Source: a virus
Taxonomy: Duplodnaviria > Heunggongvirae > Uroviricota > Caudoviricetes
DNA: 38,194 bases
Reading direction: 5' to 3' (one strand)
Virus record (IMG/VR): IMGVR_UViG_2925914267_000004
Below, piece after piece: positions 4,945 to 9,097 of the stretch (the first letter of the stretch is position 1; every line of letters begins with the position of its first letter). Position numbers and translations under genes: made by a program. The notes under the pieces were generated by a model. It had not been told where the DNA came from. It did no database searches and worked only from the letters and a program-made list of their open reading frames with translations.

Positions 4945-5266
4945 GAAACCAGAACATGCACACACAAAAAAACCGCTTGCCATGCCGCAATCAGTCAGGT
5001 TACATTTCCGCTGCACCTCACAAAACGGGTGTCGGGTTTCGCAGCCTGCTGACAACCAAAGCGCACAACCGCGCCAGCGGTTTTTTTGTGCGTACCGTAT
5101 CGCCACGTCTTTTTCGCACACGAATTATGGTGGGGCGTATGGGGCCGACTTCGGTCGGGCCGGGTTCTTTGGTTGCCGGTACTGCGAACCTCGTACGTCT
5201 CGCCACCCACAGTTTCGCAGCTCTGGATGGTGAGTTTTCAAAACTTACAACCAAAGAGGCCACACC

Positions 5267-5941: not shown

Positions 5942-8557
5942 ATGACGGCAGAGTACATCAGGGACTGGCAACAACCACGCCACGCAGTGGGGCGTGAAGG
6001 AACGGGGATCCCCGCTCCTGAATCCGCGCTTTCCTCCTGGCTGGATGCCTACCGGGCAGAGAACGAGCGCCGCCAGGAAATGGCTGATGCGGCGTTCTCC
6101 GCCACGCCGCTGGACAACCTGATTAATAAAAGCCTGGACGCACAGGAAAAACAGGACAAAACCATCACACTGGCAGGAGACGCAAGAAAACAGGCACGCG
6201 GCGCGGTGGATGAAGCCATGGCCTCGCTGCGCCTGCTGCCGTCCTATCTGCGCGATCCGCTTATTCGCCACCTCTCCTTCCTGCGCAAAAAACAGGAAGC
6301 CGATCGCCGGAAAGGCAAAAAGAGCTGGCAGGCGGAACGCTATGCACGCGGAACCCTGCGCAAAATATTCGAACGTCTGGAGCGCACCGACAGCCGCTGG
6401 CTGACACCGGGTTATCGCGCCCTTGCCGGACGCGAACGCCTGGACGATTTGCTTTACCTGCCGCAGCTTAACAAGCACCAGATACAGACGCTGGCCACCA
6501 TGACGGCGGCAATGTTCAGCAGCACCTTTGAGACTCTCTGTGATGGTTTCGGTGCCAGAGATGGCGAGCTGACCATGGATGTAACGCTGAAGGCGTATCA
6601 GATGCTGGCCCGCATGGCGTTACACCTGCACGCCATGCCTCCACATTATGACGCACTGACAACAGACAAAGACCGGAGGAACGAACCGGACACGGAACTG
6701 CTGCCGGGCGCAATCCTTCGCCTGACCTGTGCGGACTGGTGGAAACGCAAACTGTGGCTGTTACGTTGTGAGTGGCGGGAAGAACAACTCCGCGCCGCCT
6801 GTCTGGTTTCCAGAAAAACATCACCCTATCTGAGCCAGGACGCGTTAAGCGAGTTTCGCGCACAGCGCGAGAAAACACGCGATTTCCTGAAAAGTTTCAT
6901 GCTGGAAAATGAAGACGGGTTCACGATTGATCTCGAGACGGTGTATTACGCGGGAGTAAGTAACCCGGTTCACCGTAAGGCAGAAATGATGGCCACCATG
7001 AAGGGACTGGAACTTCTGGCCGAAGCCCGTGGCGACAAAGCGGTGTTTCTGACTGTCACCTGCCCGTCAAAATACCACGCCACAACAGAGAACGGTCATC
7101 CGAATCCCAAATGGAACGGGGCCACCATGCGCGACTCCAGCGATTACCTGGTTAACACGTTTTTTGCGGCGGTCCGCAAAAAACTGAACCGCGACGGCCT
7201 GCGCTGGTATGGCATCCGCACGGTGGAGCCTCACCATGACGGCACCGTGCACTGGCATATGATGGTCTTTGCTCATCCGGAAGAAATCGACACCATTGTG
7301 TCCCACACCCGCGATATTGCCATTCAGGAAGACCGCCACGAACTGGGCAATGATATTACTCCGCGCTTTAAGGCGGAGTACGTCGACGGCTCAAAAGGCA
7401 CGCCAACCAGCTACATCGCCACCTACATCGGAAAGAACCTGGACAGCCACGCCGTGGATGGCATCGACCCGAAAACGGGCAAGCCACGCGTTGACCACGA
7501 AACCGGAAAATCAATGGCCGAGAGCGTGGAGCACGCCATCGGCTGGGCGCGCCTTCACCGGGTCCGCCAGTTCCAGTTCTTTGGCATCCCCTCCCGTCAG
7601 GTGTGGCGTGAACTGCGCCGCCTTGCCAGCCAGATGGCACGCAACCCGGAAGGCCCGCAACAGCTGAAGGATGACGCAATGGATGCGGTACTCGCTGCCG
7701 CTGATGCCGGGTGTTTTGCCACCTACATTGAAAAACAGGGTGGCGTGCTTGTTCCACGCAAAGACTACCTGATTCGCACCGCCTACGACCTCGCAGATGA
7801 GCTGAACGATTACGGCGAACAGAGCGTACAGATTTACGGGATCTGGTCGCCGCTCATCGGGGAGTCTTCCCGCGTGTGCACGCATCCGGATAACTGGAAG
7901 CTGGTAAGACGTAAACCGGAAGCGGAAGACAGCGCCCGCGAAAATGGTTTTGACCTTCAGGGCGGCCCTGCCGCCCCTTGGACTCGTGGCAATAACTGTC
8001 CCCGTGTACAGGAAACGGACAACAACGGGACAGAACAGCCGGAAGAACGGCCAGCACCGTGGCCGCAGCTTCCTGACGGCATTGAAGTGAATGAATGGAT
8101 GCGCTCACTGAAACGGCACGAACGCCGGGCGCTGATGCGTTCGCTGCGTGAAAAACCAGTAAATACCAGCAGCGGTGATACACCTGACCGGATGGCAGGG
8201 CATAAACAACCGCCAGACATACCAGTATCACCTGCCACTGAATGGAGAAAATCAGCCGGGGAACCGGGCATAAAACTGAGCGATGAACATATACAGCACC
8301 TGATGAAGACGGGAATGCTGCGTATTAATGGCCATGTACTGGAAGTCACTGACGGCAGACTGACACACCGTCGCGATCAGCGCACAGACAGGAAGGTGAG
8401 CCGCATCTGGGAACGCCTGAGCCGCAATCATGGCATCAGCGCAACTGAAATCAGGTACAACCCGCTCGCACACTACGTGGACATGCTCAGGAATATCGGC
8501 GTGGAGGCTTTACCCGCAGTCACAGAACACAGACATCAGGGAGATGAATCTCAGTGA
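5942..8557 (+). CDS. A: Rolling-circle replication initiator/endonuclease (P2 gpA-like)
   Basis: 871-aa ORF with the HUH-type motif VHWHMMVFAHPEE; the largest early gene, in the canonical A position. Confidence 0.9.
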   Translation: MTAEYIRDWQQPRHAVGREGTGIPAPESALSSWLDAYRAENERRQEMADAAFSATPLDNLINKSLDAQEKQDKTITLAGDARKQARGAVDEAMASLRLLPSYLRDPLIRHLSFLRKKQEADRRKGKKSWQAERYARGTLRKIFERLERTDSRWLTPGYRALAGRERLDDLLYLPQLNKHQIQTLATMTAAMFSSTFETLCDGFGARDGELTMDVTLKAYQMLARMALHLHAMPPHYDALTTDKDRRNEPDTELLPGAILRLTCADWWKRKLWLLRCEWREEQLRAACLVSRKTSPYLSQDALSEFRAQREKTRDFLKSFMLENEDGFTIDLETVYYAGVSNPVHRKAEMMATMKGLELLAEARGDKAVFLTVTCPSKYHATTENGHPNPKWNGATMRDSSDYLVNTFFAAVRKKLNRDGLRWYGIRTVEPHHDGTVHWHMMVFAHPEEIDTIVSHTRDIAIQEDRHELGNDITPRFKAEYVDGSKGTPTSYIATYIGKNLDSHAVDGIDPKTGKPRVDHETGKSMAESVEHAIGWARLHRVRQFQFFGIPSRQVWRELRRLASQMARNPEGPQQLKDDAMDAVLAAADAGCFATYIEKQGGVLVPRKDYLIRTAYDLADELNDYGEQSVQIYGIWSPLIGESSRVCTHPDNWKLVRRKPEAEDSARENGFDLQGGPAAPWTRGNNCPRVQETDNNGTEQPEERPAPWPQLPDGIEVNEWMRSLKRHERRALMRSLREKPVNTSSGDTPDRMAGHKQPPDIPVSPATEWRKSAGEPGIKLSDEHIQHLMKTGMLRINGHVLEVTDGRLTHRRDQRTDRKVSRIWERLSRNHGISATEIRYNPLAHYVDMLRNIGVEALPAVTEHRHQGDESQ

Positions 8558-9021
8558 TTAAATATTGTCGCCAGTGCGGCCGGGAGCTGCACTACAAGGA
8601 AAAATTTTATTTTTCAGATCACATCTGCTGCCGTTGCCGTGGACTGGCGTCGTTTGATGATGACGGTACTGAATCTGTCGGAAGGGAAAGAACACCTGTC
8701 GAACGCACCCTCTTCGAGCGTTACCCGGTATGGCAACTGATGATTGAGAAAGCCGAACGGCAGTGGAAAGCAACCCACCCGCAACCTCTGGCGGACGTCA
8801 TTACTGTAACCCGGTGCACAAAGGTCTCTGATGAACGCATCACCGAAATGCTGGCGCAGTATGACGACTTCAGGCCGGTTCAGATTGAAGAACGTGAGCT
8901 GATAGCCCTCCTTCAGGAAGTGCGCGAAGCACGACGCAGTGCCGCCTTACAGGCGGAAAAACAGACAGAAACGGGACTCACAAATCCCGTAAATGAGCAA
9001 AAAACGCGCCATAAAACATGA
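8554..9021 (+). CDS. Zinc-ribbon protein (CxxC-x16-CxxC), first gene of the A-Q cargo hotspot
   Basis: N-terminus CRQCGRELHYKEKFYFSDHICCRCRG. Starts at GTG overlapping the A stop, so the start is uncertain. Confidence 0.45.
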   Translation: MIKYCRQCGRELHYKEKFYFSDHICCRCRGLASFDDDGTESVGRERTPVERTLFERYPVWQLMIEKAERQWKATHPQPLADVITVTRCTKVSDERITEMLAQYDDFRPVQIEERELIALLQEVREARRSAALQAEKQTETGLTNPVNEQKTRHKT

Positions 9022-9063
9022 AGTGCGCACAAAACAGGCAAAAACGGGATTTCAGAATCCCGT
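8971..9063. promoter_or_regulatory. Two near-identical inverted repeats upstream of parM (candidate parC-like centromere/operator)
   Basis: ACGGGACTCACAAATCCCGT at 8971-8990 and ACGGGATTTCAGAATCCCGT at 9044-9063, both flanked by AAA; the second ends about 35 bp before the parM start. Confidence 0.4.
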
Positions 9064-9097
9064 AAACGATTAATTAATCAACATAAGGAAAAGCGAC

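Follow-up and report, generated by a model that had tools for sequence, protein, structure and literature searches.

A two-site parC-like element upstream of parM in a P88-like P2-family prophage: a predicted centromere of a type II partition cassette

Type II (ParMRC) partition is the textbook case of actin-based DNA segregation, and its centromeres have been dissected in a few plasmids only. In R1/NR1, the centromere parC lies directly 5' of parM-parR and is composed of two blocks of five direct 11-bp iterons, 94 bp apart (5 × 11 + 39), with a sigma-70 promoter in the 39-bp core; it is reported to be strongly curved and to take a U-shape with ParR (PMC2241845), one ParR dimer being bound per iteron and the DNA wrapped around a ParR superhelix (reviewed in PMC5016525). 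In pSK41, a ribbon-helix-helix ParR reads 20-bp recognition units, each of two 10-bp halves, and wraps the DNA as a superhelix (PMC5016525). A type II cassette, srpMRC, is also carried by the chromosomal element SXT/R391, where its expression is coupled to induction of the element and where it keeps the excised circular form stable; its centromere srpC has four repeats of 13 bp in direct and in inverted orientation, and stable binding is obtained only with repeat pairs (PMC4489591). In the Corynebacterium prophage CGP3, the adaptor of the AlpAC/alpS system attaches to repeats close to the operon that encodes it and connects circular phage DNA with the filaments (PMC4446434). Here we analyse one stretch of Caudoviricetes DNA, IMG/VR record IMGVR_UViG_2925914267_000004 (38,194 bp; hereafter, the window), which corresponds to a P88-type (Xuanwuvirus) P2-family integrative prophage. 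Its segment 8958–9079, directly upstream of a parM gene, is probably a cis-acting parC-like centromere of a type II cassette and is predicted to be bound by ParR.

The element is built around two 20-bp dyads of the form ACGGGA-N8-TCCCGT, flanked on both sides by AAA (AAACGGGACTCACAAATCCCGTAAA at 8968–8993 for site 1, AAACGGGATTTCAGAATCCCGTAAA at 9041–9066 for site 2) and lying 73 bp apart, start to start. An initial annotation made from the letters of the window had drawn attention to this pair, and every detail of its description proved correct, including the location of site 1 in the last codons of a zinc-ribbon open reading frame (ORF) and that of site 2 just before the ribosome-binding site of parM. 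Site 2 ends 22 nt before the Shine-Dalgarno sequence and 34 nt before the ATG. Perfect matches occur exactly twice in the window, where about 0.002 are expected (4^-12 per position), and both, with their 12 specified bases, fall within about 130 bp 5' of parM. When up to two mismatches are allowed, six matches are found against 1.4 expected, a number reached by none of 100 shuffles; a chance origin of the two dyads was rejected on these counts. Each dyad forms the core of a 39-nt direct repeat, the two copies of which are 79% identical. The idea that the dyads delimit a mobile cassette as its terminal inverted repeats was rejected too, no copy being present at the right boundary.

The strongest evidence for a parC-like role comes from the comparison of lineages. 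Scans of genome and viral contigs with the ParM query returned only relatives of at least 98% identity, too close to be of much help for covariation, and the divergent lineages were reached through homologous proteins and the contigs encoding them; when the ParMs of Hafnia and Plesiomonas served as queries, the viral scans gave nothing or one Enterobacter-type locus. Divergent cassettes, placed like that of the window between gpA and the portal gene, were found in a metagenome (L091, ParM 98% identical to that of the window), in Hafnia (L096, 95%, and L097, 62%) and in Plesiomonas (L098, 62%). Relative to the parM ATG, the two sites are placed at −125 and −52 in the window (the 100% reference) and in L091, at −124 and −51 in L096, at −128 and −55 in L097 and at −131 and −59 in L098, which corresponds to a spacing of 73 bp throughout except for the 72 bp of L098; site 1 of P88 likewise stands at −125. 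In L097 and L098, the 141 nt upstream of parM are only 53–59% identical to the window, which is near random, and the two GGG-N10-CCC sites are kept nonetheless. The invariant columns of a seven-way alignment read GGGA…AA.CCC in site 1 and CGGG…A.CCC in site 2, and the spacing is exactly 73 bp in 86 of the 94 P88-type loci scanned. Conservation of the repeats with the cassette in related loci, which had been put forward as a check, is thus borne out by divergent lineages, in the form of paired sites 72–73 bp apart.

The lineages also separate what is conserved from what is not. In the window, the plus-strand hairpins have calculated energies of −8.7 and −10.7 kcal/mol, and hairpins of the P88 group, L091 and L096 included, range from −7 to −11 kcal/mol. 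On the plus strand of L097 and L098, the values are only −3 to −5 kcal/mol, for stems of 3–4 bp with loops of 10 nt, and the T-runs of the P88-type sites are missing as well. The sites are therefore hairpin-capable in the window, as initially described, but the property that is conserved is the GGG-N10-CCC geometry and the spacing. Since hairpin strength and T-runs are lost while this geometry and the seven-turn spacing stay, a role through a DNA-binding protein is favoured over an RNA or terminator role. The motif is, moreover, confined to one genetic context: a scan of IMG/VR for CGGGATT-N4-AATCCCGTAAA gave 119 loci, with a parM start 53 or 125–126 nt downstream in all but five, which are cut by the contig end, and in this set it is linked exclusively to parM.

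Table 1. Features of the parC-like element and its cassette (window positions; a dot marks features without strand).
Feature	Position	Strand	Basis or remark
Upstream ORF, CxxC...CxxC, 155 residues	8554–9021	+	Last ~21 codons enter the module; outside the cassette
Direct-repeat copy 1, 39 nt, with site 1	8958–8996	+	Left edge coincides with the module boundary at 8957
Site 1, 20-bp dyad ACGGGA-N8-TCCCGT	8971–8990	.	Conserved core GGG-N10-CCC at 8973–8988
Spacer, 53 bp, A-tract rich	8991–9043	+	Weak GC dyad, GCGC 9006–9009 / 9025–9028
Direct-repeat copy 2, 39 nt, with site 2	9031–9069	+	Repeat search
Site 2, 20-bp dyad ACGGGATT-TCAG-AATCCCGT	9044–9063	.	8-bp arms
Perfect 12-bp palindrome GATTAATTAATC	9068–9079	.	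Between site 2 and Shine-Dalgarno sequence
Shine-Dalgarno sequence AAGGA of parM	9086–9090	+	Sequence
parM, actin-like partition ATPase, 319 residues	9098–10057	+	PF06406, 1.8e-82; PF21523, 5e-69
parR, ribbon-helix-helix centromere-binding adaptor, 103 residues	10062–10373	+	PF10784 (Plasmid_stab_B), 6.8e-24

The two sites, parM and parR together form a conserved and sharply bounded module (8957–10373). Megablast alignments with P88, Chuche and phiSM, among others, start at position 8957, only 14 bp before site 1, and those with P88-type phages extend to the stop codon of parR at 10373. The identity to P88 is 94% in the 141-nt stretch upstream of parM versus 51% in the preceding 200 nt. The gene located 5' of the sites varies while the distance between sites and parM is fixed: it is a long GpA in P88, GpA followed by the zinc-ribbon ORF in the window, a 167-residue ORF in L097, and a methyltransferase followed by a 71-residue ORF in L100. 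In P88, the longer GpA that replaces the zinc-ribbon ORF ends at the same stop codon. On this comparative evidence, the sites form one recombination-bounded module with parM-parR and do not move with the upstream replication gene.

The proteins of the module belong to the families expected for a type II system. The structure of R1 ParM (1mwk) matches the window ParM at 1.9e-93 over residues 2–316, with an identity of about 50% to R1 ParM and of 47–53% to plasmid ParMs, so that, as judged by sequence, the ORF at 9098–10057 encodes a true ParM. The parR gene starts 5 nt past the parM stop. A profile built from phage-cassette and plasmid ParRs, that of the window included, matches the structure of pB171 ParR/StbB (2jd3) at 3.4e-13; a single-sequence search of the Protein Data Bank (PDB) with the window ParR alone gave no match at E ≤ 1. 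An AlphaFold2 model of the ParR monomer from a 25-sequence alignment reached a predicted local distance difference test score (pLDDT) of 54 and a predicted template modelling score (pTM) of 0.30, with the N-terminal strand unmodelled, a quality too low to be informative. No NCBIfam model scored above its cut-off, and neither ParM nor ParR was found in any PADLOC defence model. Both genes are already annotated in GenBank records, as ParM and partition protein.

An alignment of 25 phage ParRs shows no variation at half of the first 67 positions, among them the N-terminal strand RRISFYLKP, a hypervariable linker at 67–92, and little or no variation in the C-terminal NIRALFPE. IncFIA, IncL/M and R1-type ParRs have tails that align with this N-x-x-x-L-F-P tail and are the ParM-binding tails of the plasmid proteins, and the conserved tail of the phage ParRs is accordingly the predicted ParM contact. 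The RRISFYLKP strand co-occurs with the sites and is kept even in L091, where ParR is only 55% identical although ParM is 98% identical. The family thus combines a fixed DNA-reading strand with a hypervariable linker. The parR gene as a whole is mosaic and fast-evolving relative to parM, with a nucleotide diversity (pi) at codon positions 1+2 of 0.18 versus 0.03–0.04 for parM in P88-type loci. At the sequence level, the locus presents the following elements of a type II cassette: ParM, a ParR encoded directly downstream, a ParR tail of the ParM-binding kind and a repeated cis site directly upstream of parM. Together with the linkage of the module, the maintained spacing and the occurrence of the motif with parM only, the two protein families support the initial proposal of a parC-like site of a type II cassette.

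No promoter of its own could be recognised for the cassette. The best sigma-70 score with a position weight matrix (PWM) in the 260 nt 5' of parM is 1.0 in the window and 1.6 in P88, to be compared with 6.0±2.0 for the best score per 263-nt segment genome-wide and with 9.4–11.6 in plasmid parC regions (11.6 in the R1-type region). A consensus scan of 8400–10700 found no plus-strand promoter, and between gene A and parM neither a plus-strand promoter nor a plus-strand terminator. With no such signals and so low a PWM score, transcripts of parM-parR would most likely come from the early operon of the phage (cox…A) by read-through. The hexamer ATTAAT at 9069–9074 is unlikely to serve as a −10 element, having a T at position 2 and no −35 element at proper spacing, with a start at or inside the Shine-Dalgarno sequence. 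It lies inside the palindrome GATTAATTAATC and is invariant in all seven lineages aligned; among related loci, the variant GGTTAATTAACC has both halves changed and the palindrome kept. As candidate roles, this palindrome may provide an AU-rich leader for translation or bind a further protein. The initial annotation had pictured the repeats as centromere or operator sites: the centromere half of this idea is supported, and the operator half is doubtful because no promoter-like sequence is present.

When compared with R1/NR1 parC, the element has the same position directly 5' of parM-parR, homologous ParMs, ParRs that share PF10784 (StbB in R1), a cis site organised in two blocks with a spacer, and an A-rich strand with 10.5-bp phasing. 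The periodicity of AAA at 10–11 bp in the 125-nt stretch 8951–9075 is the highest of the 1523 segments covering the whole sequence and was reached by 3 of 2000 shuffles; a similar signal is given by R1-type parC. This stretch thus carries 10.5-bp phased A-tracts, a hint of degenerate periodic units rather than recognisable iterons. The differences are equally clear. In R1-type parC, direct 11-bp iterons stand in tandem in two clusters of about five each, whereas the window has two repeat copies only, in the form of dyad-symmetric 20-bp sites, without clear tandem iterons. Nor does it have a counterpart of the autoregulated sigma-70 promoter located in the R1 core between the repeat blocks; plasmid parC regions in general showed direct-iteron arrays with a good sigma-70 promoter between them, and an R1-type control gave A/C-rich arrays 94 bp apart, as expected. 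The window ParR is shorter than that of R1 and only about 27% identical to it, and the replicon is an integrated phage. The contrast drawn at the outset with the direct iterons of R1, ten in number, is therefore accurate, but the inverted repeats are not without precedent, since direct and inverted 13-bp repeats make up srpC of SXT/R391 (PMC4489591); it is the minimal, promoter-less two-dyad layout that is unusual here. In the parC of the IncL/M plasmid pSL264 (L088, 1008–1178), T-rich super-repeat blocks recur every 72–73 bp, the same seven-turn spacing as in the phage sites, which hints at a higher-order periodicity shared in this ParR clade.

The other described systems resemble the locus in part. 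Like it, srpMRC belongs to a normally chromosomal element and has a centromere of few direct and inverted repeats 5' of the actin-like gene. It differs in the number and form of the repeats, four of 13 bp versus two 20-bp dyads, and in its adaptor, as SrpR has no recognisable similarity to ParR according to its authors (PMC4489591) while the window ParR belongs to PF10784; its function has been demonstrated, whereas that of the window locus is predicted. With pSK41 the locus shares the 20-bp unit of two halves and the ribbon-helix-helix ParR, but the pSK41 repeats are tandem, direct and contiguous, whereas the two units of the window are inverted repeats with 53 bp between them. The pSK41 ParM and ParR are distant in sequence from the window proteins, and the likeness rests on the description of the sites. 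CGP3 offers an actin-like filament and a DNA-binding adaptor encoded, as here, by an integrated prophage, with an unrelated adaptor, many short TTAAnnG repeats, another actin subfamily and a Gram-positive host.

P2-like cassettes of Serratia and Enterobacter (L099, L100 and L221) stand closer. They occupy the same gpA-portal slot, their ParMs are 54–59% identical to that of the window (L099 and L100), and their half-site AAACGGGAA resembles AAACGGGAT of the window. In place of two compact dyads, they have one large inverted repeat with arms of 14–20 nt and 26–28 bp between them (L099 2880–2945, L100 2883–2950, L221 483–551), whose outer GGGAAC/GTTCCC elements are about 66 bp apart. Their ParRs carry the strand NRKISFYLKP and are 133–134 residues long. 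As this lineage shows, the architecture evolves whereas the theme persists.

From these observations, a working model of the parC-like site can be proposed. Dimers of the ribbon-helix-helix ParR would recognise the CGGGA/TCCCG half-sites of both dyads, with one dimer per half-site and a dimer of dimers per dyad, by analogy with the 20-bp units of pSK41. The distance of 73 bp corresponds to about 7.0 helical turns and would place the two dyads on the same face of intrinsically curved, A-tract-phased DNA, which may allow the bound ParR to assemble into one bent or wrapped complex. The clustered ParR tails (…NIRALFPE) would then capture the growing ends of ParM filaments, and these filaments would push sister DNAs apart. 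Because the cassette is almost always chromosomal (see below) and has no promoter of its own, ParM and ParR are probably made only after infection or induction, and their target would be the free circular phage genome rather than the integrated prophage.

Several points weigh against a centromere. Only two clear sites are present, versus 8–10 ParR dimer sites in pSK41 and R1, and these may cluster too few ParR tails. The centres of the specific triplets are separated by about 13 bp, a geometry that also suits a helix-turn-helix dimer, whereas adjacent ribbon-helix-helix dimers are usually 7–11 bp apart. Conservation of the arms in the P88 group exceeds that of the spacers only modestly, and their diversity (pi 0.04–0.15) is similar to, or modestly below, that of parM third codon positions (0.12), which is not decisive. 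The sites of this group resemble hairpin-plus-T-run terminators on the minus strand. The need for partition is not obvious in a cassette that is chromosomal in 1452 of its 1454 places in E. coli, the two others being on plasmids. Finally, a literature search found no paper on this locus, its centromere or a ParMRC function in P2-like phages.

Among the alternatives, the one that survives best, though unlikely, is that the sites are ParR operators only, segregation having been lost, and that they throttle transcription by a roadblock to polymerases entering from gene A or by repressing a weak, unrecognised promoter near ATTAAT. The R1 repeats do double as operators (PMC2241845, PMC5016525), site 2 is positioned between an incoming transcript and the ribosome-binding site of parM, and the element is nearly always chromosomal. 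However, the PWM values and consensus scan given above leave no promoter-like sequence to repress, and the strong purifying selection on ParM (pi at codon positions 1+2, above) and the invariant ParM-binding tail of ParR argue that the motor function is retained.

A less probable reading takes the two dyads and the central GC dyad as tandem intrinsic terminators of the minus strand, which would keep antisense transcription arriving through parR-parM out of the early operon and gene A. Both sites are indeed called minus-strand terminators by a terminator scan, with hairpins of −10.2 kcal/mol and five T in the next 8 nt, and the central dyad of P88 (−10.4 kcal/mol) is followed by TTTTTT. On the minus strand of 8958–9070, site 2, the central GC dyad and site 1 form three tandem hairpin-plus-T-run elements; these are present in P88-type sequences, with T-runs in L091 and L096 as well, and absent from L097 and L098. 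The plus strand has no U-run, and the minus strand has the signature of an intrinsic terminator in P88-type sequences only. The hairpins of L097 and L098 are weak (stems of 3–6 bp, 10-nt loops, −3 to −7 kcal/mol) and lack T-runs, yet the paired sites persist at 72–73 bp. A fixed 73-bp spacing would be needless for terminators, a separate terminator-like hairpin (10440–10421) already lies past the only nearby minus-strand gene, and the Rfam 15 covariance models gave only chance-level matches in 8800–9200 (E 0.5–0.7, far below gathering).

It is more improbable still that the sites bind another protein, be it the replication initiator GpA (as part of an origin), another phage regulator or a host helix-turn-helix dimer. 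Site 1 does lie in the 3' end of the ORF that precedes parM (the zinc-ribbon ORF in the window, gpA in P88), and a GGG-N10-CCC geometry would suit a helix-turn-helix dimer. The module boundaries, however, contradict this reading: P88 homology begins just upstream of site 1, and the distance to parM remains fixed while the upstream gene varies. ParR is, in addition, the sole DNA-binding protein that always accompanies the sites. Least probable of all are plus-strand mRNA hairpins at the gpA-parM junction that would control processing, stability or translation, for although such hairpins form in the window and site 2 is close to the start codon, the L098 stems are of 3–4 bp (−3.2 and −4.9 kcal/mol) and pairing is not kept across lineages, P88-group variants are mostly one-sided without a clear compensatory pattern, and Rfam gives no match.

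A parC-like centromere thus remains the preferred reading, and the comparative data argue for a real, conserved and probably functional site, unusual in its minimal, promoter-less two-dyad layout in an integrative phage. The locus may be regarded as a naturally minimal parC, in which two dyads are phased at a fixed 73 bp on curved DNA, and could reveal the fewest ParR sites able to cap a ParM filament. If ParR binds the sites, prophage copies of parC could exert incompatibility against related phages or plasmids. We further put forward, tentatively, a broader possibility: the centromere of P2-family phages may be a minimal one, with two sites and no promoter, that has the early lytic operon as its only driver, ParMRC serving the positioning or segregation of the free phage circle specifically upon induction or infection. 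If this were true, ParMRC might be used before integration, in a carrier state, or in replication and packaging. It would represent a phage use of plasmid-type actin segregation, analogous to CGP3 AlpAC and SXT SrpMRC, and two dyads seven helical turns apart would be a new compact segrosome geometry for ParR-family proteins.

The cassette, with the same left boundary, is present in 1306 of 5426 complete E. coli genomes, O157:H7 strains included, in up to three copies per genome; its identity to the window never exceeds about 97% in these genomes, so that the window probably stems from another set of strains or another species. As a chromosomal copy of a "plasmid" partition system, the cassette is thus very common, being carried by about a quarter of complete E. 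coli genomes, and its role in an integrating phage is puzzling. A ParM 98% identical to that of the window prophage was also found on a 226-kb contig labelled as a Firmicute, "Vagococcus sp. WN89Y" (L005, NZ_JBQPOM010000071.1), which is probably due to contamination or to a mislabelled assembly.

The surroundings of the cassette are those of a P88-type phage. The gpA gene lies upstream (5942–8557, PF05840), and a downstream ORF on the minus strand (12022–13068) lines up with the P88 portal gene. On the map of P88, integrase, C repressor and Cox are followed by an early operon whose last member is the replication endonuclease, and this in turn by ParM and "partition protein". Upstream of gene A, in the early region, two plus-strand RNAs were detected by Rfam above gathering, the Hfq-binding RNA isrK (5013–5087, 62.6 bits) and the C4 antisense RNA (5123–5210, 81.6 bits); a "derepression protein" is annotated in the corresponding region of P88. 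The slot between parR and the portal gene is variable. In the window it contains a 268-residue DUF3800 ORF (10605–11411, minus strand) that matches the PADLOC candidate defence family PDC-M04A at 2.6e-35, and in relatives HicAB, a KAP NTPase or a helix-turn-helix/M78 peptidase pair, so that it looks like a hotspot for defence genes or morons. In P88, a host-killing gene of the hok/gef type (MokW-like) is annotated at L101 34928–35068, a second plasmid-style maintenance function in this phage group.

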